Assembly (NCBI GenBank): GCA_965248535.1 | Contig: CBDFJR010000004.1 | Coordinates: 1-36,332 of the forward strand | Source of the DNA: Phormidesmis sp. | GTDB lineage: Bacteria; Cyanobacteriota; Cyanobacteriia; Leptolyngbyales; Leptolyngbyaceae | Reading direction: 5' to 3' | DNA length: 36,332 nucleotides | Shown: positions 24,581 through 36,331 of the stretch, one piece after another | Numbering within the stretch: position 1 is the first letter of the stretch | How the letters are laid out: the number at the start of each line of letters is the position of its first letter | The notes under the pieces: generated by a model | Database searches by the model: none | What the model was told of the DNA's origin: nothing | The model's input: the letters and a program-made list of their open reading frames with translations, nothing else | Position numbers and translations under genes: made by a program

Positions 24581-24674
24581 ATTGCTAGATGGAATTAAAA
24601 TCAACGCGATCGGATTCTGAATCCTCCAACCCTTATGGTATTCTTCTGTTCTTGTTTGATCCATGCGTTGTTCG

Positions 24675-25595
24675 ATGAAAAAAATTCTGTTTTCCGGGTT
24701 TCTGTTTCTATCTTTAGTGGCGCTGTCAGCCTGTAACTCGACGACCTCGCCAGAAGCGGCTAAACCTGCGGCTCAATCTAAAACTTTTACGACGGGGGCG
24801 ATTCCTGACCAAGATCCCGAAAAGTTGCAGCGTCTTTACAGTAAATTGTCCAAATATTTAGAAGCCGAGTTAAAGGTGCCCGTTGTCTATAAGCCTGTGA
24901 CGGACTATACGGCGGCGGTGACTGCCTTTAAGGTTGGCGACCTAGACATGGTGTGGTTTGGCGGTTTGACGGGGGTGCAGGCGCGCTTGCAGGTGCCGGG
25001 GGCTGAAGCGATCGCGCAACGAGATATCGATGCTCAGTTTCACAGTGTGTTTATTGCCAACAAAAAAAGTGGACTTCAGCCGATTCAAGATCTCAAAGAT
25101 CTGACCGTTTTGAAGGGTCACAGTTTCACGTTTGGCAGCGAGTCTTCGACTTCAGGGCGCTTGATGCCGCAATATTTTCTTCAGCAAGCCGGGGTGAAAT
25201 TAGAGGGCGATTTCAAAGGGCAGGCGGGGTTTTCTAAAAATCACGATGCCACGATCGAGCTAGTCACCGCAGGCACCTATGATGCGGGCGTATTGAATGA
25301 GCAAGTTTGGAAAAAGCGCATTAAAGAGGGCAAAGTTGATCTCAATCAGGTTGAGGTGATTTGGCGATCGCCCGCTTTTTTTGATTATCACTGGGTGATG
25401 AATCCGAGTGTGAAAGAGCGATTTGGAGCCGATTTTTCGCAAAAGGTGCAGGCTGCGCTGATGAAACTCGATCCCAATGTGCCTGATCAAAAAGAGATTC
25501 TGGAACTGTTTGGGGCGGCTAAGTTTGTGCCGACGAAAAACGAGAACTATGCGACGATCGAGCAAGTTGGAAGAGCGATCGGCAAGATTAAATGA
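24675..25595 (+). CDS. PhnD-like ABC substrate-binding lipoprotein (putative selenate/oxyanion subfamily)
   Basis: MKKILF start and lipobox LSAC; AIPDQDPEKL, WFGGLTGVQAR, FGSESSTSGRLMP and DYHW. Alternative start at 24663. Confidence 0.85.
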   Translation: MKKILFSGFLFLSLVALSACNSTTSPEAAKPAAQSKTFTTGAIPDQDPEKLQRLYSKLSKYLEAELKVPVVYKPVTDYTAAVTAFKVGDLDMVWFGGLTGVQARLQVPGAEAIAQRDIDAQFHSVFIANKKSGLQPIQDLKDLTVLKGHSFTFGSESSTSGRLMPQYFLQQAGVKLEGDFKGQAGFSKNHDATIELVTAGTYDAGVLNEQVWKKRIKEGKVDLNQVEVIWRSPAFFDYHWVMNPSVKERFGADFSQKVQAALMKLDPNVPDQKEILELFGAAKFVPTKNENYATIEQVGRAIGKIK

Positions 25596-26353
25596 CGGTT
25601 CCAGCCCCCGTTTTTGAACTCAAGCAGGTGTCTCAGCAGTTTGGCAATTTTTTGGCACTGACGGATATCAATCTGCAAATCTATTCTCATGAGCGGGTGG
25701 CGCTAGTGGGGTCAAGCGGGGCTGGAAAAAGCACGCTGCTGCGATTGTTGAATGGCAGCGTGCGATCGACCCAGGGCGAAGTCTGGGCAATGGGAAGAAA
25801 TCTGAGCCAACTCAATGCAAAGCGGCTGCGGCAAGTTCAACAGCAAATTGGCACGATTTATCAACAGTTGCATTTAGTGGATAATCTGCGAGTGATTCAC
25901 AACGTTAACGCCGGACACTTGGGGCGATGGTCATTTTTGAAAGCGTTAACGTCTTTGATCGTGCCGTTAGAAACTGAGACTGCGATCGCCGCTTTGAGTC
26001 AAGTGGGCATTGCTGAAAAGGTCTATGAGCGCACCGATCGGCTTTCAGGCGGACAGCAGCAGCGAGTCGCGATCGCCAGAGTGCTGGTTCAAAATCCGCT
26101 AGTGATTTTGGCAGACGAACCGATCGCGAGTCTTGACCCCGAACTTAGCCGAGAGGTTATGGATTTGCTGCAAACCCTTGCCCAACAAGCCGATCGGACT
26201 TTAGTGATTAGTTTGCATGATGTCGATTTTGCGCGAAGTCACTGCGATCGCATGATCGGGTTACGGCAGGGAAAAATTCTTTTCGATGCGGCTCCTCAGC
26301 AAGTCTCCTCTGATCTGATCGCCGATTTATATCGATTGGATTCCCACTCATGA
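25592..26353 (+). CDS. PhnC-like ABC ATP-binding protein
   Basis: GSSGAGKST, LSGGQQQRVAIAR, ADEPIASLDP and SLH motifs; ATGA overlap with the upstream gene. Confidence 0.93.
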   Translation: MTVPAPVFELKQVSQQFGNFLALTDINLQIYSHERVALVGSSGAGKSTLLRLLNGSVRSTQGEVWAMGRNLSQLNAKRLRQVQQQIGTIYQQLHLVDNLRVIHNVNAGHLGRWSFLKALTSLIVPLETETAIAALSQVGIAEKVYERTDRLSGGQQQRVAIARVLVQNPLVILADEPIASLDPELSREVMDLLQTLAQQADRTLVISLHDVDFARSHCDRMIGLRQGKILFDAAPQQVSSDLIADLYRLDSHS

Positions 26354-27984
26354 GGGTGATCACTCCTGCATTCAAATGGGGTTTGATCGGGGTTGCCGCA
26401 ATCGTACTCTCACTTCTGCAAGCCGGACTTTTTCGACAAGATTTATTCAATCTCAACGGTGTGCCGCTCCTGTGGAGATTTATAGTTGCTAGCGTTCATC
26501 CAGATTTTAGCGTTGAGTTACTTCAAACTACTTTTAATGCAACGATCGCTACATTGGCGTATGCAGTCTGCGGTACGTTTTTTAGCTTAATTTTAGGAAT
26601 GATTGGCGGCGTTTTAGCTTCTGAGGTTTTGTGGTTGTCGTTTGGGTTGCCTTCGCGTTTTTGGCTAGTGATTCGAGCGATGATCGCGATTCCTCGCGCT
26701 ATTCATGAATTGATCTGGGGACTGTTTTTTGTCAACATTTGGGGACTCGATCCTTTAACGGCGATCGTGGCGATCGCGATTCCGTTTGGCGCAATCACCG
26801 CGAAAGTGTTTTCTGAAATTCTAGACGAAACGCCGCGCCAGCCACTATTGACTTTGCTAAATAGCGGTGTTCCTCCGCTCACTGCCTTTTTCTATAGCCT
26901 ATTACCCCAAGCGTTTCTAAATCTATTGTCTTATGGATTCTATCGGTTTGAATGCTCCATTCGTTCGGCTGCTGTGTTGGGAATTATCGGCGCAGGTGGG
27001 TTGGGGCATGAAATCTTTCTCAGCTTGCAATCACTGCGCTATGAGCAACTTTGGACGTTTTTCTATGCGCTGTTTATTCTCAACGGATTGGTTGATCTGA
27101 GCAGCGCCGGGTTGCGACGACGATTGGGATGTTCTAGCCGTCTCGATTTGAACCTTCCCACAAAAAGAAAGATCACTCAAAAATCGACTCAGAGTTATTG
27201 GCTGCTGATTCCGATTTCTCTGGTTCTGCTGGTTCTTTGTTTTAGGTTTATCAATCCTGATTTCAGCAAACTTTGGGCCCCACGCACTCAGCAATTATTG
27301 GGTCAGTTTGTGCAGTCTGCCTGGCCGCCCGATCTCAGTGGAGTGCCGCAGTTAGTTCCGCAAGCGATCGAGACCGTTTCGATGTCGGTGCTGGCGATCG
27401 CGTTCTCGGCGGTTGGGGGTCTGCTGCTTGCATTCCCGGCGGCTAACAATTTCTTTTTGCCGGGGGGTCTGCTTAATCAGCAAGGCAAAAGCAGCTTAGT
27501 GCCGCAAATGATGCTAATCGGGTCACGAGCCGTTTTGCTGATGTGTCGGGCGATTCCGGCTCCGATTTGGGCACTGGTCGTTCTATTTGTCTTGTTTCCA
27601 GGCATTTTACCCGGCGCGATCGCCCTCGGTCTACACAATCTAGGCATTTTGGGGCGCTTGATGGCAGAAGTGATCGAAAATCAAGATCAGCGTCCGCTCG
27701 AAGCGCTCAAAGCTCAGGGAACCCCAAACTCGCTGATTTTTCTCTATGGAGTTTTGCCCCTCACCCTACCGCGATTTTTAGCCTATTCGCTCTATCGATG
27801 GGAGGTCTGTATGCGTGAAACCGTGATCGTCGGGCTGGTCGGCGCAGGCGGCCTCGGACGATCGCTGACCGAGCAACTGAGCAGCTTTGATTATCGAGCG
27901 CTGATCGTCACGCTAGCAGGCTTTTTAATGCTGACTTTTTTAGTCGATTGGGTCAGCGCCACCGCCCGGCGATCGCTGCGATAA
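26350..27984 (+). CDS. PhnE/PtxC-like ABC permease with two fused permease domains
   Basis: Two repeats: RAIHE...YRFECSIRSAAVLGIIGAGGLG and RAIPA...YRWEVCMRETVIVGLVGAGGLG. Confidence 0.9.
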   Translation: MRVITPAFKWGLIGVAAIVLSLLQAGLFRQDLFNLNGVPLLWRFIVASVHPDFSVELLQTTFNATIATLAYAVCGTFFSLILGMIGGVLASEVLWLSFGLPSRFWLVIRAMIAIPRAIHELIWGLFFVNIWGLDPLTAIVAIAIPFGAITAKVFSEILDETPRQPLLTLLNSGVPPLTAFFYSLLPQAFLNLLSYGFYRFECSIRSAAVLGIIGAGGLGHEIFLSLQSLRYEQLWTFFYALFILNGLVDLSSAGLRRRLGCSSRLDLNLPTKRKITQKSTQSYWLLIPISLVLLVLCFRFINPDFSKLWAPRTQQLLGQFVQSAWPPDLSGVPQLVPQAIETVSMSVLAIAFSAVGGLLLAFPAANNFFLPGGLLNQQGKSSLVPQMMLIGSRAVLLMCRAIPAPIWALVVLFVLFPGILPGAIALGLHNLGILGRLMAEVIENQDQRPLEALKAQGTPNSLIFLYGVLPLTLPRFLAYSLYRWEVCMRETVIVGLVGAGGLGRSLTEQLSSFDYRALIVTLAGFLMLTFLVDWVSATARRSLR

Positions 27985-27986
27985 TT

Positions 27987-29372
27987 TCACAGATTGTCGT
28001 CAACAAGCCGGGGAATTTTGACGGTAACCTTGGTGCCGACTCCTTCTTGACTGTCTACTAAAATCTGGCCGTTTTGCAGATCGACACACTTTTTGACCAC
28101 AGCTAAACCTAACCCAGTCCCCGCGATCGCATTAGCCTTTTGACCTCGATAAAATGGCTCAAACAGGCTCTCTTGATCCGTTTGTGAAATGCCCATGCCC
28201 TGATCGCAAACTTGAAAGATAATAGTGTCGCGATCGCAGCTTAAAATTAGCTGAATCGTTCCTCCTTGAGGCGAATATTTCACTGCATTTGACAATAAAT
28301 TACTGAAAATTGAATAAAGAAGCTTTTCATCTAACTGAGCATGACTATAGTCACACTGGCTAATTAGTCGAAATGAATGAGTTGCCAGGCTAGAACACTC
28401 CAAATCCTCAATTAAGTTCAGACAAAATGCTTCTAAATCAACTGACTCTGGTCTGCACTCTAACTTACCTGCTTCGGCTCTAGTCAGAGTTAAAATATCG
28501 GTCAATAATTGCACCATTAGCTTTGCAGAAGATTGAATCCGCTGCAAACTTTTCTCTTTTCGGTCTGCTGTCCACGGTTGATGACAGTCTAAAAGCAATT
28601 GCGCTGATCCTAAAATCACACTTAATGGAGTTCTAAACTCGTGAGAAACCATTGAAAAAAAACGCAGCTTAAGCTCACTCATCTCCTTTTGTTGAGCTAA
28701 TTGATGTTGAATTGCTTCTGCATTTTGCCGTTTAATCAACTGTGAATAAAAGGCAAAAAAGCCCGAAAACAACAGTGAAAATCCCAAAATGTTCAACCCA
28801 ATCTCGATCAATCTTCTGGTACGAGTGCTGGTCTGATATTGAACGATCGACCGCTTTAAATTCTGTTCTTCTTCAAATTGCATGTCAGCAATGACCGCCT
28901 GAATCTGCCCTCGCAGTTGAACACTGCGATCGGTGATTTTAGTCTGCTCAATCACTGTGTCTTGATCGGTTTGGCGCAGATCGATCGACCGAGCCAAAAG
29001 CGCTAACCTTTGCTGAATGAGTGCCTCTAACTGCACAAGGCGCTGGGACTGCTGGGGGTGATCTGACATTAACCATCTTAGGGTGGTCAACTCAGGCTCA
29101 AACTGAGCGATCGCGACTTGATAGCGGGTTAGCTCTTGACGATCGCCATAGTAGATATACCCCCGTCGCCCCGACTCAGCCACGGTCATGGTCGAAAAGA
29201 CATTCCCCAAGGTTTTGATTACTTCATAGGTCTGCTGCGATTTTTTGCTGCTCTCGATTAGCTCAGTCGCATTTTGATACGAGACAAAACTGCCGCTTCC
29301 CATCAGCAGGGTCAACAGCCCAAACCCTGCCGCCAGCCATTTTCCTTCAGACGACCACTTAAAAAAAGTCAT
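27987..29372 (-). CDS. CHASE3-domain sensor histidine kinase
   Basis: TM helix, AESGRRGY...Y CHASE3 pattern, TM helix, H-box SHEFRTPL, NLLSNAVKYS, DQGMGI and GTGLGL. Start at ATG 29372 or TTG 29399. Confidence 0.92.
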   Translation of the reverse strand: MTFFKWSSEGKWLAAGFGLLTLLMGSGSFVSYQNATELIESSKKSQQTYEVIKTLGNVFSTMTVAESGRRGYIYYGDRQELTRYQVAIAQFEPELTTLRWLMSDHPQQSQRLVQLEALIQQRLALLARSIDLRQTDQDTVIEQTKITDRSVQLRGQIQAVIADMQFEEEQNLKRSIVQYQTSTRTRRLIEIGLNILGFSLLFSGFFAFYSQLIKRQNAEAIQHQLAQQKEMSELKLRFFSMVSHEFRTPLSVILGSAQLLLDCHQPWTADRKEKSLQRIQSSAKLMVQLLTDILTLTRAEAGKLECRPESVDLEAFCLNLIEDLECSSLATHSFRLISQCDYSHAQLDEKLLYSIFSNLLSNAVKYSPQGGTIQLILSCDRDTIIFQVCDQGMGISQTDQESLFEPFYRGQKANAIAGTGLGLAVVKKCVDLQNGQILVDSQEGVGTKVTVKIPRLVDDNL

Positions 29373-29713
29373 GCTCCTATTTTCTGAGGTCAGCCGCAAA
29401 ATTCAATATTTTAAAGTTGTGGAGACTCAAGTTTAAGAAATAATAACTATTCTGTCACGGAAGAATCTTCAAGTTTAAAGATTGGTTGTGTTCAACATAC
29501 CAGTACGGTATATTGACAACCATCAATTAAGGCTTTTATTCAGCCTTTTTCAGTATTTACACATATCAGTCATTGTGGTTGATCTGAGTCAAGATCGTCC
29601 CCGGTTGCTGACGTGTCAACGTGTGTTCTAGGAGTCATTGAACGCAGACAGTTTGTGCTGCCCGTTCAGTCACGCCGTCTATCGTTAATTTTTGACCAGT
29701 TTGGGCTAAACTC

Positions 29714-30781
29714 ATGACTCGATCAGCATCTATTCGGACTCAGGGTATCTCGACTTCTCGCCCCTCAGAAACTCTGTCTGACGACCATCCTCCGACGGAC
29801 AAAGCAAAGTCAAATCTGCACACGCTAGCAGCGACTTGGGCCCGAAAGTATATTGTCTCAGTGACTTCAGACTATGACGAAGCGCAGATCAGAAAAATCG
29901 ATCGCTTCTCAGACTACGCTTCCACAGAAGGGCGAAAATATACCACTGAGAAGCTGATGCAAAGCCTGAAATTGGCGAGTGCCCAAGCTTGGTCAATGAC
30001 CGAAGACCTTTTAGCCGTCGAAGTTTTGCGTCATGGAATCGATTCAAAATTGCTTGACCCCTGGCAAATCGCCGCAGACTCTCATCAGCTATTTGAGAAA
30101 GCACTGCTGTCTTATGGGGATCAACTCACCGCCCAGCGTCTTTCGGTTGTGATAGGCGACGACTGTGGGCGGTTGCGACAAAAATATACGGCACAAGACC
30201 CGCGCACGATCGGCTTTGTCAGTATGCAGTTTCACCACACAGGCAAAATTCTCGTCAGCCAGCTTTCGCCCGCCGAACAGGTGCTATTTTCGCCCTATAT
30301 CAAAGTCATGGACGATCACATGTATATGCCGCTGCGAGAAGCTTATCAGGCTGCCGCAACCCATGATACCGATTCTCCTGAGTTGATCACCGTGCAAAAC
30401 TTGTTGCCCCTCAGCAGCCGGGTCGCCCATCGCGTGTGTGAGCAAATTCATCGGCTCAATCCCGGCTACCAAACCTACAGCGGCAGCCTCAATTCGTCAG
30501 ATGTCAGAATCTCCAGCATCCGAGATGTTGAAATGTTTCAGGTTTATCTCTGTCTGTGCATTTTAGAAGGCAATGTATCGTCCGTGCAGAGCCAGTTGTT
30601 TCCCCTCTGCGTGATGCTCTACCCCCGATTGAAGGTAAAGTGGCAAATGGTGCAAGATATGTTGCAAGTGATGGGCTGGGAGCTATATGGGCAACTGTCA
30701 CCCAAAGATATGTCGGTTTTGATCCCCTATCTGCGAACGTTGACAGAAATGTTTTCTCCAGATGTGTTTCAGCCGAGTTAG
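29714..30781 (+). CDS. Hypothetical protein; C-terminal half phycobiliprotein/globin-like
   Basis: Long ORF 37 bp upstream of the response regulator. Residues ~230-348 align ungapped by eye with allophycocyanin alpha as recalled (see findings). Confidence 0.75.
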   Translation: MTRSASIRTQGISTSRPSETLSDDHPPTDKAKSNLHTLAATWARKYIVSVTSDYDEAQIRKIDRFSDYASTEGRKYTTEKLMQSLKLASAQAWSMTEDLLAVEVLRHGIDSKLLDPWQIAADSHQLFEKALLSYGDQLTAQRLSVVIGDDCGRLRQKYTAQDPRTIGFVSMQFHHTGKILVSQLSPAEQVLFSPYIKVMDDHMYMPLREAYQAAATHDTDSPELITVQNLLPLSSRVAHRVCEQIHRLNPGYQTYSGSLNSSDVRISSIRDVEMFQVYLCLCILEGNVSSVQSQLFPLCVMLYPRLKVKWQMVQDMLQVMGWELYGQLSPKDMSVLIPYLRTLTEMFSPDVFQPS

Positions 30782-30818: not shown

Positions 30819-31505
30819 ATGCGAATTTTAGTCGTTGAAGATGATGTGCAACTAGCTGAAGTGCTGACTGAGGCCCTGACCGATCGCCAATATGCTGTGG
30901 ATGTCGTGCAAGACGGAGAAGTGGCGTGGGAGTGGTTTAACTCCCTTCACTATGATCTGATTGTGCTAGATCTGACCCTGCCAAAACTGGATGGGGTGAG
31001 TTTTTGTCAACGCCTGCGAAGTCGCAACTTTACTGCCCCGGTGATGATGTTGACGGCCCGTGACACGATCGCTGACAAAATCATTGGGTTAGATGCGGGC
31101 GCAGATGACTATATGGTTAAGCCCTTTGACCTGCAAGAGCTAATGGCCCGCATTCGAGCGCTCTTGCGTCGAGGCAGCAGCGCCATCCTGACTGGGTTTG
31201 GGTGGGGCAGTCTGCGTCTCGACTCTAGCACCTATGAAGTCACCTACAAAGACGAGCCGATTCAGCTAACCCCTAAGGAATATGCGCTGCTAGAACTGCT
31301 GGTAACCAATGGGCGGCGAGTGTTAAGCCGCGCTGGGATCATTGAACGCATTTGGACGCTGCAAGACCCACCCACCGAAGAGACGGTTAAGTCTCACATC
31401 AAAGGTTTACGCCAAAAGCTCAAGGCCGCTGGTGCCCCAGACGACTTGATCGAAACCGTTCACGGGCTGGGTTATCGGCTCAAAAAGACCGAGGAAAGCG
31501 CCTAA
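30819..31505 (+). CDS. OmpR/PhoB family response regulator
   Basis: MRILVVEDD, LDLTLP, LTARD, GADDYMVKPF, LTPKEY and TVHGLGYRL. Confidence 0.96.
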   Translation: MRILVVEDDVQLAEVLTEALTDRQYAVDVVQDGEVAWEWFNSLHYDLIVLDLTLPKLDGVSFCQRLRSRNFTAPVMMLTARDTIADKIIGLDAGADDYMVKPFDLQELMARIRALLRRGSSAILTGFGWGSLRLDSSTYEVTYKDEPIQLTPKEYALLELLVTNGRRVLSRAGIIERIWTLQDPPTEETVKSHIKGLRQKLKAAGAPDDLIETVHGLGYRLKKTEESA

Positions 31506-31541: not shown

Positions 31542-34500
31542 CTATGGCTCAACAAAGATCATGCCTGCGGCAAGTTGAATCACATTTAGCTCAGTGTTGT
31601 GGCGATCGACGATCATCTTCTTCTTGATTTCTAATTCTCGGTTCACTTTGCGGAGTTGCCCTTCTGTGGCAGGCACCATTCGGAGCTTGCCTGATTGTTG
31701 AAAGGTTTGAATGCGTTCTTCAAGCTGTTGTTGGCGACGATCGGCGTAGCTTTCTGCACTGCGTCGTTGAACGTTGCAACGGCTGTCATTCTCAGCATCA
31801 AATTCTGCTGATGCCTGATCAAAGCCTGTTTCTAGTGCATCATCGCAATCGCAATAAAGTGCCAAGACTCGATCGAGATCTTCTAACAAATTAGCGGCAT
31901 TCAGCTTTGCTTTTCCCCAACGGGCTGCCCGATAGACGAGGCGTTCTGATTGATCATCAGACAATAATTTGCCATCGGAATATTGAGCAACTTTGTAAGC
32001 AAGACGGCTCTCAGAACGCAATCCCTGAAACAGCCAGTGATGAATCACATACACATATTGCCCCGGCGCAACATCAACGTCTGACTGCTGACAGCGAATG
32101 GCTGCGATCGGGTGAATCTGAGCATCATTGTCGTAGCTGTGCCGAATCCATTGAATCAGCGGATGGGTGGGATCAAGCAGCTCGATCGGCTTTCCTTTAT
32201 CTCTGCCCGGTTGTTCTGCAAGGCGAGGGTCAAACAAACAAAGCGCAGGCGATCGATGTAAGCGAGTTTGAGTCGCAAATCGATGGTGCTTGAGGAACAA
32301 CTCTAAATCTCCTTTGGCATCTTCGGTGAGCTTGATCTCAGAGATAGCCTCTCTACCTTGAACGGGTTTAATGGTGGTGCCCAAATAATAGCGAGCAAAA
32401 TAGTCTTCAACAAATGAGTGTAATTCTTCTGAGGTCAGCCATCGACCTTGATTGCGGCTTTTGCTAACCGCATCAAGAATTTGATCTGAGAACGCCATTA
32501 GATTGACGGATTCTTGTTCTAATTGGTCTTGTTGGAGGCGTTGTTTGAGGATGGCGCTGGCAGTTTCGTCAGCGCGTTTGAGTCGCTCGGCATCGGTCAG
32601 GTCGGGTTCAAAGAGTGTAACGAGGAGTTTTTCGGTCGCCTCTCCGAGAATATTTTCTAAATCGCCAATGCTTTCTTGAAAGACATTGATGCGCTGATAT
32701 AAGCGATCGAGAATCCGTTCTTCAATCGTGTCTACCAAACTGAAATTAATGATTGAGATGCGATCGGCTTTTTGCCCTAAGCGATCAATCCGTCCAATTC
32801 GCTGTTCGACTCGCATTGGATTCCAGGGCAAATCATAATTGATCAAAAAGCGACAGAATTGCAGGTCAATTCCTTCGCTGCCGACTTCTGAAGACAAGAG
32901 AATTGAGGTTTTGCCTTGCTTAAATTGTGCCAATATGTCTTGTTTTTGATCACCCATCCCACCCAAGATCAAACTGGTCTGAATTCCATCTGCTTCTAAG
33001 CGGCGTTGCAAATAGTGGAGGGTGCCGCGAAAGTAGGCGAACAGAACAAATTGCTCGTCTGGATTTTTCTTAAGTTCGCGGCGTAGACACTGAACAAGCG
33101 ATCGATATTTGGTGTCTTCAGATTCGAGTTGAGCGTAGTTAATAGTTTCTAAGGGCAATGTCTCCCGATCGGGCAATGGTTCAGTTTCTAACTGCGTCGT
33201 TGAAATGCCCGATTCCCAAAATAGTTCATCTTGAAATTCATCCAATATTCCTTGCTCTGACCAGGTTTTTAGCGCCGCGACAAGACAGCTTGCCATCTGC
33301 CGCTGACGGGCAATCAATCGAAACAGTGAAACACCTTGCTTGCCTCTGCTTTGTTTGCGAATGGCTTGAGTCACCGACTCATAAATTTCTTTTTCTAAAG
33401 TAGAGAAATGAACCTTTAACGTTTGTGGGGCGCGTTCAACCCGATCGGGTAACACATCGCGTTTACGACTGCGGGTGAGATATTGACTGACTAATGAAGC
33501 GCTTTCTAGTTTGTAACCGAGTCTGACTTGTGTTTCTGCGTCGATCGTCTCCGGCGTTTCCAACGTTTTTTGAATTTGCTTCAATACAGAATTATGTTGA
33601 AAGTAATCGGACTGAAGGGCACGATCGAGTTCACGCTTTGCCGTTGAGAAATTGGGAGGATGACTCCACAGCGATCGCAGCGCCCGAATCAGCGGCGCAT
33701 TTGCCTCCAACATTTGATGAAAAATTGTCTCGTCAAAAAAGTCTTCTGGGCTAACGATCTTTAGCAGTTGATACAGGTTATTGTTCTGAGTCTGAATCGG
33801 GGTTGCTGTCAGCAGCACTAGATGACGAGCCGCATCTCTCACCAGTTGCCCTAAACGATGATTGGCGGTGGCTTGGTTGCGGAGATAATGCGCTTCATCA
33901 ATAATCACCAAATCAAACACACTCAACTCATCGGCAGCAGGATTGTTGTTGTTATTGTTGTCTAACAATCTTGCGAGTTCTGCCTTGGCTCCCGAAGTGG
34001 TTTCATCTTCCCAATTGGCGCTGGGGCGAAGCCCTTCTAAGCTAGCGATACACACAAAGGGATGCTGATATTGGCTTTGCAAAACGTGCTTGACTTCTCC
34101 TAAGAGCGCTTGGGCGTTGGTGAGGTTGGCAATGATATTAAACCGTTGTTGCAGATCATCGCGCCATTTTTCTCGCAAAATTGCAGGACAAATGATTAAT
34201 AAACGACGGGCATCGGCTCTGGCTTGCAGTTCTTTCCAGATGTATATCGCCTCGATCGTTTTCCCCAGTCCTACTTCGTCTGCAACCAGCAATCGCCCTA
34301 CCGGAGATTCTAAAAACTTCAGCACAGGTTTAAACTGATGCGGGTAGAAGTCGGTATGGCTCGACTCCATGCTGTAGAAGATGTTGGTTAATTGCCCTTT
34401 TACCTTCTCAAACGTGAGAATTCGGCGCAGATCATCGGCTCCGCTAAATTTTCCTTGTTCTAACAGCGCAAAAAGTCCTTCTGGTTCTCCACAAAGCTCT

Positions 34501-34673
34501 AAAAGGTTGTAGGGCTTATAGGATTTTTCGTTGGGGCTAAATTGAACTTGCACGAGCAGCCGAGTTCCAGAAGCGCGAGTTTTTCCGGTCGTGGTGCCAC
34601 GATGTCCCGGATTGGCTTTTACACGCACTTCTTGCCCGGAAATAGCCGGGTTCCAACTAGTAGGGTCACTCAT
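31542..34673 (-). CDS. SNF2-family (RapA/DrmD-like) SF2 helicase/ATPase
   Basis: YPHQ, ADEVGLGKT, DEAH, LTATP, SEVGSEGIDLQ and YDLPWNPMRVEQRIGRIDRLGQ; C-terminal helical/coiled region. Confidence 0.93.
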   Translation of the reverse strand: MSDPTSWNPAISGQEVRVKANPGHRGTTTGKTRASGTRLLVQVQFSPNEKSYKPYNLLELCGEPEGLFALLEQGKFSGADDLRRILTFEKVKGQLTNIFYSMESSHTDFYPHQFKPVLKFLESPVGRLLVADEVGLGKTIEAIYIWKELQARADARRLLIICPAILREKWRDDLQQRFNIIANLTNAQALLGEVKHVLQSQYQHPFVCIASLEGLRPSANWEDETTSGAKAELARLLDNNNNNNPAADELSVFDLVIIDEAHYLRNQATANHRLGQLVRDAARHLVLLTATPIQTQNNNLYQLLKIVSPEDFFDETIFHQMLEANAPLIRALRSLWSHPPNFSTAKRELDRALQSDYFQHNSVLKQIQKTLETPETIDAETQVRLGYKLESASLVSQYLTRSRKRDVLPDRVERAPQTLKVHFSTLEKEIYESVTQAIRKQSRGKQGVSLFRLIARQRQMASCLVAALKTWSEQGILDEFQDELFWESGISTTQLETEPLPDRETLPLETINYAQLESEDTKYRSLVQCLRRELKKNPDEQFVLFAYFRGTLHYLQRRLEADGIQTSLILGGMGDQKQDILAQFKQGKTSILLSSEVGSEGIDLQFCRFLINYDLPWNPMRVEQRIGRIDRLGQKADRISIINFSLVDTIEERILDRLYQRINVFQESIGDLENILGEATEKLLVTLFEPDLTDAERLKRADETASAILKQRLQQDQLEQESVNLMAFSDQILDAVSKSRNQGRWLTSEELHSFVEDYFARYYLGTTIKPVQGREAISEIKLTEDAKGDLELFLKHHRFATQTRLHRSPALCLFDPRLAEQPGRDKGKPIELLDPTHPLIQWIRHSYDNDAQIHPIAAIRCQQSDVDVAPGQYVYVIHHWLFQGLRSESRLAYKVAQYSDGKLLSDDQSERLVYRAARWGKAKLNAANLLEDLDRVLALYCDCDDALETGFDQASAEFDAENDSRCNVQRRSAESYADRRQQQLEERIQTFQQSGKLRMVPATEGQLRKVNRELEIKKKMIVDRHNTELNVIQLAAGMIFVEP

Positions 34674-34702: not shown

Positions 34703-36331
34703 TCATCTCGGTTCGTTGGCTTTAGGTGCTTTACCCATCGGATCTTCTCCTTTAGGGGGTGCTGGCTTGATTTGCTCCATCTCGCTTGGAAGTCTTATCT
34801 CTGGCTGCTCTCCAGTAGGGATCGACAACCCATAGGCGACTGCAAATCGATGAAACTCGCGGTTGCTGATGCCGTTCGTTTCCAAATCTTTGGGTGCTGG
34901 CAGCGATCGCACCGCATACTCTGGAATTCCATAATTCTTGTGTGGAACATCTTTGTGAGTTGAGGTGATCGCCTGCGTGTAAAAAGAAGTTTGTCCGCCA
35001 CCACCGCCGATTAAAATTTCTAAAGGTTTCTCAAAGCCACGCCGCGATAGCTTGAAGCCGTGCTCACCATATCTCTGACTCCCCTTAGAGACAACATCAG
35101 CAATCATTCGTTGAATCTCTTTTCGAGCCGTACTCGCTTGAAATTGATCGGAATAACGGGTCGAGTTTCCACAGATAGTGTTTTTAGCATCCGTTTCTGC
35201 AATCCCTAACTCCTGTGCCAGCCGATGAGAAAAGGCAGTCACACCCAAAGGATTGACTTTGCCAAAGAAAAAATCAACTTTCTTCTCGCCGTCATCATTC
35301 CAGTACCGAAACGAGCTTCCGTCTAGAGTTCCATCGCCCACATCAAAGAGGACATAAAATCCTTCATCCACTTCACGCGAGTTGAGTAACGACCACACTT
35401 CAGCCGCGATTTCTGGAATCGCATGGCAATCGATCGGGGTTTCTTTTAGCGTTGCTCTCAGTGGTTTCATGCGATCGCGCAAATTCTCGATCGTCATCTG
35501 CTCAGTCTGAGGTTCATTACTTAACAACCAGGCGAGCGAGAGAACTTTTTGAAAGCGGTTCTTTGCTGGAGAATCACAATACTCAACCGGAACGCCAACA
35601 TTCGCAGACCAATCAATTTTCTGGTTGATGATCAGTTCTGGTTTGTTATGGCGAATCCAAGCTTTAGCGCGAGTCATGACACGATTTAAATAATAGGCAC
35701 AAAGATTTTCAATGGTTTCGGCATCCCTCAGTCCTGGTAATTTTTTGAGCTGCCAGCTTTCCGCACTTTGAGGAAGATCAAAATTTGCCAGACGCATTTT
35801 GATAAATTCCACCGTTGTCTGCACCTGATTTTCATAGGGTTGCCATTCAGAAGCGGTCAATCCAGCAATCAACGTGCCATCGGGCAGAATTCCGATTTTT
35901 GTCGGCAGTAAGGCTTCTTCTAGGTGAGTAGCTTCGTCGGTAAAAGTGACAACCTCCGATCGGTCTCTCGCCACATCTCGAAAACAAACTTTTGTAAAGC
36001 TGGTGCCAAAATCAATCCCTAAGTTCAGCACCAAATCTTCTAAATCATTAAGTCCGTCAACGTCAGGAGGACTGATCGGAGCCTGCTCAACTTCGGGTTC
36101 TAGTCCGATTGGCAAGGGTTCGTCAGTTTGTCGAGCTTCGATCGTCCTCAGCCGTTCTTGAAGTTGCTCGATTTGTTCTACAAACTTAGGAAATGCTTGT
36201 TGCAGGGCTTGAAACTCACCCCAATTGAGAGCCGTCGCTTGAAGCTGTTGACGAATGACTAAAATCTCTTGAGATAAATTTTCCCGCACTTGAGAGAGTT
36301 GCGCGTTTAACCCTGAATCTGTCGTTAGTGC
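34703..36331 (-). CDS. Coiled-coil plus actin/Hsp70-like (ASKHA) ATPase; 5' end lies outside the window
   Basis: LGIDFGTSFTKV (phosphate 1), IPEIAAE (connect), FDVGDGTLD (phosphate 2), IGGGGG (adenosine) and AVAYGL. The frame stays open upstream of GTG 36289 to the window edge (ALTTDSGLNAQLSQV). Confidence 0.82.
   Translation of the reverse strand, partial: ALTTDSGLNAQLSQVRENLSQEILVIRQQLQATALNWGEFQALQQAFPKFVEQIEQLQERLRTIEARQTDEPLPIGLEPEVEQAPISPPDVDGLNDLEDLVLNLGIDFGTSFTKVCFRDVARDRSEVVTFTDEATHLEEALLPTKIGILPDGTLIAGLTASEWQPYENQVQTTVEFIKMRLANFDLPQSAESWQLKKLPGLRDAETIENLCAYYLNRVMTRAKAWIRHNKPELIINQKIDWSANVGVPVEYCDSPAKNRFQKVLSLAWLLSNEPQTEQMTIENLRDRMKPLRATLKETPIDCHAIPEIAAEVWSLLNSREVDEGFYVLFDVGDGTLDGSSFRYWNDDGEKKVDFFFGKVNPLGVTAFSHRLAQELGIAETDAKNTICGNSTRYSDQFQASTARKEIQRMIADVVSKGSQRYGEHGFKLSRRGFEKPLEILIGGGGGQTSFYTQAITSTHKDVPHKNYGIPEYAVRSLPAPKDLETNGISNREFHRFAVAYGLSIPTGEQPEIRLPSEMEQIKPAPPKGEDPMGKAPKANEPR

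Follow-up and report, generated by a model that had tools for sequence, protein, structure and literature searches.

A diverged phycobiliprotein homologue with a predicted second globin domain in an unnamed cyanobacterial protein family

Phycobiliproteins rank among the most thoroughly studied pigment proteins. Their relatives that lie outside the light-harvesting antenna, the BBAGs and the photoglobins, have been recognised only in 2021-2024, and are used to trace the origins of bilin binding and of the phycobilisome. AplA of Fremyella, reportedly described by Montgomery and colleagues in 2004, is said to be an allophycocyanin-like phycobiliprotein paralogue outside the phycobilisome, single-domain, Cys-bearing and chromophorylated. 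The paper on structure 4XXI reportedly presents the bilin domain of ApcE as a phycobiliprotein domain without the usual Cys-84. Here we describe a gene at positions 29714-30781 (forward strand) of a 36,332-nucleotide stretch of DNA from Phormidesmis sp. (GCA_965248535.1, contig CBDFJR010000004.1), hereafter the window. Its open reading frame (ORF) has an ATG start, encodes 355 amino acids (aa) and contains the stretches quoted in a preliminary description of this DNA, which had proposed a hidden phycobiliprotein-like domain with Ser at the bilin-binding Cys. We propose that the gene product is a soluble, stand-alone protein with two phycobiliprotein-type globin domains in tandem, and we hold the homology and architecture part of this explanation with high confidence.

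In phycobiliproteins, the Cys of a CXRD motif forms a thioether bond, and the Arg and Asp hydrogen-bond the chromophore, as set out in passages of PMC10151467. The portions of PMC8717448 that concern ligand contacts give three positions, namely the Cys, the Asp and a helix-F Tyr contacting the bilin, and state that photoglobins often have Ser or Thr at the Cys site. BBAGs are non-antenna phycobiliprotein paralogues, with or without CXRD, that bind bilins without lyases, and BBAG-2 proteins without CXRD still bind biliverdin (passages of Rockwell, Martin and Lagarias 2023, PMC10151467). The biliverdin of photocobilin globins sits in a phycobilisome-like pocket and is not linked to a Cys; an Asp contacts its rings A-C, and replacement of this Asp, with His in its place, lowers the affinity (parts of PMC10979010).

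Homology and predicted fold of the two domains

We compared the C-terminal domain of the protein (globin domain 2, aa 218-348, 30365..30757) with the ApcA encoded by the same genome (L079:1483-1965), which was located by a PF00502 search of the assembly. The two align without gaps over aa 223-348 (offset 187; 20 of 126 residues identical, 16%), and the identities include P250, G257, R270, D271, G286, Y303, L306, M320, L328, S329, D332 and Y339, which are the twelve matching positions that the preliminary description had listed. The ungapped BLOSUM62 score of 39 was reached by none of 2000 shuffles, whose best ungapped scores had a mean of -53, a standard deviation of 10 and a maximum of -2. 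The Pfam profile PF00502 matched aa 214-344 on its positions 22-152 of 155 (E 5.6e-4, 20.3 bits), and a six-frame search of the genome with this profile gave 21.8 bits, or 22.3 including neighbouring matches. Close homologues matched it at E <= 0.1 in 30 of 32 cases (best 1e-7), and members of a second clade of the family (clade II, below) exceed its cut-off at 24.7-36.4 bits, two of the nine tested being without a match. Searched against PDB sequences with phmmer, the protein retrieved only three chains, every one a phycobiliprotein (best E 0.011); no NCBIfam model matched the 355-aa protein.

A 29-sequence C-domain profile aligned by hhalign with the six phycobiliproteins of the same genome over 118 ungapped columns (E 9.7e-4), placing Ser268, Arg270 and Asp271 on Cys81, Arg83 and Asp84. 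The homology test that we regard as the most telling was a reciprocal search, in which a hidden Markov model (HMM), built from the C-domains of 77 divergent representatives of the family and free of any phycobiliprotein, was run over the 24,665 stop-to-stop ORFs of the genome. The five best non-self ORFs were ApcA (9.8e-4), an ApcD-like protein (1.4e-3), CpcB (2e-3), ApcB (6e-3) and a BBAG (0.046), and an ApcF-like protein and CpcA ranked slightly below them. The gap-free alignment, the shuffles and this reciprocal search bear out the domain that had been proposed from the sequence alone.

An AlphaFold2 model built from a 32-sequence alignment was all-helical, with a predicted local distance difference test (pLDDT) score of 83.6 and a predicted template modelling (TM) score of 0.81. 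Foldseek, which the preliminary description had suggested as a check, placed the predicted C-domain among phycobiliproteins: these, or the allophycocyanin-derived smURFP, made up 31 of the 39 rows shown, and the phycobiliprotein rows had a TM score to target of 0.65-0.85 and a root-mean-square deviation (rmsd) of ~2.4 Å over ~127 columns. VIA-align, run against 48,161 representative chains, superposed aa 218-348 on allophycocyanin 8or7_A with Z 14.8 and an rmsd of 2.2 Å over 127 residues, a value to be read with the program's own warning that helical models may score Z ~14 even against chains unrelated to them. The six best rows were all phycobiliproteins or ApcE (ApcE at Z 13.4-13.6), followed at lower ranks by photocobilin (12.0), sensor globins and RsbR (10-11) and haemoglobins (<= 9.4). 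As modelled, the C-domain has a phycobiliprotein-type globin fold.

Tandem recombinant haemoglobins among the Foldseek rows, together with RsbR-type matches on aa 73-216, led us to suspect that the N-terminal half is also a globin. This half, which the preliminary description had passed over, was modelled alone (aa 36-216, from a 29-sequence alignment; pLDDT 84.9). Its best VIA-align match was the ApcE bilin domain 4xxi_A (Z 14.2, rmsd 2.4 Å, 115 residues); 8imk_G gave Z 12.8 and an rmsd of 2.7 Å over 122 residues. Rows 1-8 were all phycobiliproteins or ApcE, and after them came photocobilin (9.4-10.3), RsbR and sensor globins. Allophycocyanin alpha chains headed the Foldseek rows for this domain (E 0.025). 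We therefore predict from the model that aa ~70-204 (globin domain 1, 29921..30325) form a second phycobiliprotein-type globin. Sequence comparison of this domain was negative throughout: PF00502 matched none of 29 N-domains, PDB sequences yielded nothing relevant, hhalign against the genome's own phycobiliproteins gave a probability of 0.3%, and an N-domain HMM run over the same genome retrieved no phycobiliprotein. When the two halves were compared with each other, hhalign found a single 25-residue local match, aa 177-201 with 321-345 (probability 9.6%, not significant), with the motif G..L...LSP.E....PY at equivalent spots near the end of each domain. This match is suggestive, and may reflect a shared G/H-helix motif. 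In the model an invariant Asp122 may correspond to Asp271 of the C-domain, in which case the Cys and Arg sites would be Ile119 and Ala121.

Several results weigh against this interpretation. The PF00502 score of 20.3 bits lies under the cut-off of 22.2, the hhalign probability of the C-domain against the phycobiliproteins was 21.9%, and a whole-length family profile searched against PDB sequences reached its best phycobiliprotein chain at only E 0.15, worse than the single sequence. Foldseek gave no match at E <= 0.001 (E values 0.007-0.08). The C-domain has lost the ApcA invariants Y73, A79, R90, Y94, A98, G111, E114 and D154 of its own genome, and the N-domain assignment is that of a predicted model only, with Z in the range that helical models can reach (~14) against unrelated chains. 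Tool by tool, the statistics are marginal. They are all concordant, and the C-domain is a true, distant phycobiliprotein homologue. The other rows of the whole-length profile search (E 0.21-0.76) were mostly TAL-effector repeats and were discarded as chance matches.

A widespread cyanobacterial family with two clades

Searches at several scales place the protein in an unnamed, conserved and widespread cyanobacterial family. A word-indexed search returned 2599 candidates, 768 of them homologues at E <= 0.001. The 120 of these 768 that were listed are 321-397 aa long and 55-87% identical; where a source names them it is almost always as 'hypothetical protein', two JGI entries are named 'Phycobilisome protein', and a precomputed PF00502 match is found on 23 of the 120. 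In GTDB contigs with one genome per species, 298 of 312 candidate stretches encode a relative, all of them cyanobacterial. In an even sample of the phylum the family is present in 53 of 401 genomes (29 of 152 genera), a single genome having as many as five matches; the Phormidesmis genome studied here holds one copy. An exhaustive HMM search of 1.84 billion representatives gave 202 matches at E <= 0.001, and since the best 150 of these 202 all have E <= 5.5e-12 we take them for family members or fragments.

Looking up the clusters of ten representatives brought back no name other than 'hypothetical' or 'uncharacterized'; the entries came from Microcoleus, Tychonema, Scytonema, Oscillatoria, Leptolyngbya and Allocoleopsis. 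The ESM Atlas clusters of the protein are automatically named 'Phycobilisome protein domain-containing protein', and 52-59% of their members carry PF00502; for part of the family, but not for this protein, routine annotation thus already picks up the C-domain. Family members of 404-497 aa carry no further Pfam domain. We found no description of a tandem phycobiliprotein-like family in open-access papers and bioRxiv, a coverage that leaves out the supplementary Fig. S11 tree of PMC10151467, which might include such sequences.

A quick IQ-TREE run on 77 full-length representatives separated two clades, with SH-aLRT support of 100 for the dividing branch. Clade I (29 rows) includes the Phormidesmis protein and has Ser (25), Gly (2) or Thr (2) at position 268, with Cys in no row. 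Clade II (48 rows) contains all 15 Cys-bearing representatives, 14 of them within one well-supported subclade of 25 rows. Homologues with Cys at 268, which the preliminary description had suggested looking for, thus occur in the sister clade only. Branches within the family are long (median end branch 0.87 changes per column). The new elements are the predicted N-terminal globin, an unnamed family in 298 species genomes, and a sister clade with Cys at 268.

The attachment site and a putative bilin pocket

Ser268 is encoded by AGC at 30515-30517, followed by ATC CGA GAT for Ile-Arg-Asp, and this segment (30515..30526) is the counterpart of the Cys-x-Arg-Asp bilin motif, aligning with C81-L-R83-D84 of the genome's own ApcA. 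The earlier reading that Ser stands at the bilin Cys with the Arg-Asp pair kept is therefore upheld: Ser268 falls on Cys81, and R270 and D271 are present in 74 and 75 of the 77 representatives. The Cys of CXRD that makes the thioether link is not found in the 355-aa protein. G257 is kept in 74 representatives, and Y303, which aligns with Y116 of ApcA, is Tyr in 35, Phe in 26 and Met in 7. Of the four best-known pocket positions the C-domain retains three, the Arg-Asp pair, the Tyr of helix F and the Gly that precedes helix E, and at the fourth Ser replaces the Cys. Ser268, Arg270, Asp271, Cys280 and Cys299 are invariant in the 32 close homologues, and the helix E block 271-285 is the best-conserved stretch of the protein (mean top-residue frequency 0.72).

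Across the 77 representatives, position 268 is Ser in 38, Cys in 15, Thr in 10, Ala in 3, Val in 3, and Gly, Leu, Met and Phe in 2 each. The Cys-bearing homologues read H-S-C-L-R-D. A Cys at this position is neither surely ancestral nor required.

The four further cysteines named in the preliminary description as possible tetrapyrrole ligands, Cys242, Cys280, Cys282 and Cys299, are all present in the translation. Cys282 (30557..30559), 11 residues past Asp271 on helix E (262-285), is kept in 60 of 77 representatives, and helix periodicity would put it on the same face as Asp271. Cys299, kept in 72 of 77, precedes Tyr303 by one turn on helix F (30608..30622). Positions 242 and 280 covary, with Cys and Cys in the group of this protein and Tyr and Trp in most of clade II (Y in 45, W in 47 of 77). 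Such joint change suggests that the two residues are in contact, possibly as a disulfide in this protein (30437-30439 and 30551-30553), and the pair looks like covarying packing rather than a ligand set. The sequence has no His on helix F of either domain (aa 140-159 and 289-302), so that a proximal F8 His is missing, and among the conserved positions there is no His on helix E or F of either domain.

These features relate the protein to several described systems. It resembles the phycobiliproteins, and allophycocyanin alpha above all, in its C-domain, which has their fold, aligns without gaps and retains the Arg-Asp pair, the Tyr of helix F and the Gly ahead of helix E; for the N-domain the likeness is one of modelled fold. 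Unlike them, it carries two domains on one 355-aa chain instead of separate alpha and beta subunits of ~160-170 aa, has Ser for the bilin Cys and 16% identity to ApcA, belongs to no apc/cpc operon and, scored as a protein, falls just below the PF00502 cut-off. A canonical phycobiliprotein was rejected on three of these grounds, the missing Cys, the lack of an alpha/beta gene pair and the Pfam score. The ApcE bilin domain, which heads the fold matches of the N-domain and is among the top ones of the C-domain, is likewise embedded in a larger multi-domain chain. ApcE differs in its loop insertion, its REP linker domains, its length of ~650-1150 aa and its role in the phycobilisome core, and a separate ApcE is encoded by this genome.

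Each BBAG has one globin domain, and BBAG genes lie in clusters with V4R, Fe-S, FDBR or haem-oxygenase genes, whereas the present family is tandem, and no V4R, Fe-S, FDBR or haem-oxygenase neighbours occur in the window, at 78 related loci or at 12 paralog loci. PF00502 gives the protein 20.3 bits, versus 81.7 and 28.6 for the BBAGs of the same genome. A BBAG was rejected on the tandem build and the absence of a V4R/Fe-S/FDBR cluster, the real BBAG cluster of the genome being on another contig. That cluster, on contig C5 at ~1.591-1.596 Mb (L085:144-3038, L088:1468-2657), comprises a 2Fe-2S ferredoxin-like protein (Fer2), the 81.7-bit PF00502 globin, a V4R protein, the 28.6-bit globin and a second V4R protein, which matches the arrangement described in passages of PMC10151467; its first globin has W-K-R-D in place of C-x-R-D.

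Photocobilin resembles the protein in fold (Z 12.0 for the C-domain, 9.4-10.3 for the N-domain). Photoglobins differ in being fused or adjacent to B12-binding domains, in having a CXQD-type motif and in occurring mostly outside cyanobacteria; no B12-binding domain is found in the protein or its annotated neighbours, and because it lacks a B12 partner the protein is not a photoglobin. By descent, the closest relatives of the C-domain are, narrowly, the phycobiliproteins proper (with the family HMM, ApcA scores 19.5 bits and the BBAG 14.1). Our best guess is that the protein would work most like a non-covalent bilin globin of the photocobilin or BBAG-2 type.

We propose that a linear tetrapyrrole (biliverdin or phycocyanobilin) is held non-covalently in the C-domain by Asp271, Arg270 and Tyr303; photocobilin globins hold biliverdin in this way without a Cys. 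The N-domain, its motif lost, would act as a built-in fixed partner, as the alpha subunit does for the beta subunit, and the protein would sense, buffer or hand on free bilin outside the antenna. To this joint proposal of a non-covalent bilin, an N-domain partner and a non-antenna role we give about an even chance. Some observations count against it. Position 268 varies freely in clade II (C, S, T, A, V, M, L, F), so covalent attachment is not a requirement of the family; the Arg-Asp pair could be kept for a structural role; and pigment binding by the protein is putative. The shape of the pocket, the packing of the domains and the facing of Cys282 and Cys299 are inferred. More tentatively, and with some doubt on our part, the family may constitute an undescribed class of cellular bilin-binding globin, a single-chain 'alpha-beta-like' pair serving as a cytoplasmic bilin sensor or carrier, with non-covalent binding in clade I and covalent binding in the Cys-bearing subclade of clade II.

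The two folds could alternatively hold no chromophore and form a protein scaffold that docks, caps, assembles or regulates parts of the phycobilisome by alpha-beta mimicry, the Arg-Asp pair being structural. Such a scaffold would fit a clade I wholly without Cys (0 of 29 rows), the hydrophobic residues (V, M, L, F) tolerated at position 268 in clade II, the loss of most remaining phycobiliprotein invariants, an N-domain without any motif, and the lack of a bilin-synthesis or lyase gene nearby (78 loci and 12 paralog loci). It sits less easily with the distribution of conservation, which in this long-branched family is strongest on the bilin-contact residues G257, R270 and D271 and position 303, with the Cys that one subclade regained or kept exactly at 268, and with the related Cys-less globins that do bind bilins. 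We judge a pure scaffold, the chief rival reading, unlikely. A redox or haem sensor is a further reading, in which Cys282 and Cys299, both conserved, and in this protein Cys242 and Cys280 as well, would ligate haem, a metal or an iron-sulfur cluster or act as a redox switch; we consider it improbable. In its favour, the fold is that of a globin, C299 and C282 are kept in 72 and 60 of 77 representatives and a ChaN-type haem-binding gene lies upstream at 7 of 78 loci. Against it, helices E and F of both domains lack a conserved His, C242 and C280 jointly become Tyr and Trp in most of clade II in the manner of a packing pair, and haem globins rank below phycobiliproteins in the fold searches of both domains.

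The setting of the gene raises one further alternative, that the protein feeds the adjacent two-component system, delivering a light, redox or bilin signal to its CHASE3 kinase and RppA-like regulator. A gap of 37 nt free of terminator-like sites separates the gene from the regulator downstream, and two Phormidesmis genomes share this arrangement; a regulator follows at 48 nt in another lineage, and a SasA-like kinase stands two genes downstream in four small genomes. Yet regulator and kinase adjoin the gene at just 2 of 78 related loci, an adjacent regulator occurs only at the own locus and one other of 30 phylum-sample loci, the regulators differ in subtype (RppA-like versus PhoB/RpaB-like), and the commonest neighbours are housekeeping genes (RsmI 32, PfkB 22 and nucleoside hydrolase 21 of 78). 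The preliminary description had offered the two-component locus as a functional clue, and this part of it is not supported. With a neighbourhood that is not conserved, the reading of the protein as a sensor in a two-component system is weak, and its odds are in our view poor.

To the known non-antenna relatives the family adds a predicted tandem build and, at the attachment site, natural variants with Cys, Ser, Thr or a hydrophobic residue. If its members bind bilins, covalent and non-covalent attachment could be compared within a single natural scaffold, the family would be a candidate for sensing or handling free bilin in cyanobacteria, and it might provide a template for small fluorescent or optogenetic proteins. 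Were the class of bilin globin suggested above real, a tandem relative more diverged than the BBAGs could bear on the origin of the alpha/beta heterodimer. If nothing is bound, the family would be a case of an antenna fold turned plain scaffold.

Layout of the protein and its genomic neighbourhood

The tandem phycobiliprotein-fold protein (29714..30781, +) begins with a tail of aa 1-28 (29714..29797) that varies in length, aligns poorly among close homologues and is predicted to be disordered (pLDDT <50 for residues 1-27). Ahead of globin domain 1, aa 29-69 (29798..29920; pLDDT ~60) form short helices assigned by DSSP to 29-43, 46-51, 56-60 and 65-69, which may occupy the place of the phycobiliprotein X/Y helices in the model; W42, A43 and Y46 are invariant in the close-homologue alignment. 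When this N-terminal stretch was included in the N-domain model, Foldseek aligned 151-186 columns to allophycocyanin and phycocyanin chains at a high rmsd of 7-11 Å. The two globin domains are joined by aa 205-217 (30326..30364), with a helix at 207-215 in the model and Pro206, the sole fully invariant residue of the wider family (77/77 representatives). Between the domains, aa 213-232 (30350-30409) read AAxH..DSPxLxxVQxLLP and weakly resemble the TAL-effector repeat consensus (E 0.2-0.8, many TALE chains), a resemblance taken as chance. A homo-oligomer prediction with three copies of aa 36-355 returned 'no answer' (score 0.00), which is evidence neither way, and PADLOC found no match for the 355-aa protein.

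An OmpR-type response regulator (Response_reg and Trans_reg_C; 30819..31505, +) begins 37 nt downstream of the gene, and its best model is RppA at 227 bits, under the 250-bit cut-off. On the other side lies a divergent CHASE3 histidine kinase (CHASE3, HisKA and HATPase_c; 27987..29399, -). The 37-nt gap holds no terminator-like site, and the gene and the RppA-like regulator are probably co-transcribed in Phormidesmis, a link that would be local and not a property of the family. Used as tblastn queries over 78 + 42 + 5 loci, the kinase and regulator of the window showed the link not to be conserved. The two loci with a regulator downstream and a kinase adjoining the gene are both from Phormidesmis; in the 30 loci of the phylum sample, the own locus included, the one other adjacent regulator (48 nt downstream) is of the PhoB/RpaB-like OmpR subtype, and the difference in subtype indicates that the pairing was not inherited. 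In four genomes of ~2.5 Mb (L132:3201-5780 (+), with the same layout at L133-L135), the gene is followed by an overlapping 108-aa ORF without a Pfam match and then by a KaiB-HisKA-HATPase kinase; SasA-like kinases of this architecture are of the circadian output type.

Recurrent neighbours were sought by clustering all ORFs of the 78 loci, and by Pfam searches of the neighbours at the paralog loci. RsmI (32 loci, convergent), PfkB (22), nucleoside hydrolase (21) and inositol monophosphatase (14) recur, and a gene for a ChaN haem-binding protein lies upstream at 7 of the 78. The conserved surroundings thus comprise only housekeeping synteny plus ChaN, with no conserved functional partner. Among the genes that recur around the 78 loci there is no lyase, haem oxygenase, PcyA or apc/cpc gene. 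In the window the neighbours are the kinase, the regulator, a phosphonate transporter and DrmD, with no apc/cpc operon. The earlier suggestion of an antenna-type globin fold used outside any such operon is thereby sustained, by the fold match (Z 14.8) and by the absence of phycobiliprotein genes from the recurrent neighbours. The neighbours of 14 clade II genes at 12 loci are unrelated to one another, and no lyase, haem oxygenase, PcyA, apc/cpc, V4R or B12 protein stands alongside these genes.

In two other genomes, clade II genes occur as head-to-tail pairs ~180-630 bp apart (L121:2676-5176 (-), L126:7215-10123 (-)), reminiscent of alpha/beta gene pairs. In one genome a clade II paralog (L122:3352-6855 (+)) lies directly downstream of a dCache-HAMP-GAF-GAF-MCP protein, which has the architecture of a cyanobacteriochrome-like chemotaxis receptor, and is followed by a convergent four-PAS protein; a PAS protein is also present in a second genome (L123).

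The window, 1-36332, is the entire contig C4 of a five-contig, 5.03-Mb assembly. Upstream, a phosphonate-type ABC transporter (binding protein, ATPase and double-length permease; 24663-27984 (+)) adjoins the kinase and is kept at the two Phormidesmis loci (L001, L002). Beyond the regulator, a 528-aa ORF without a Pfam or PADLOC match (34703-36289 (-)) reaches the contig end. Between the two, adjoining the regulator, a 1043-aa SNF2 helicase (31542-34673 (-)) is a full-length match to DISARM DrmD (PADLOC PDLC02623, E 1e-302), and an anti-phage defence island may be cut by the end of the window.

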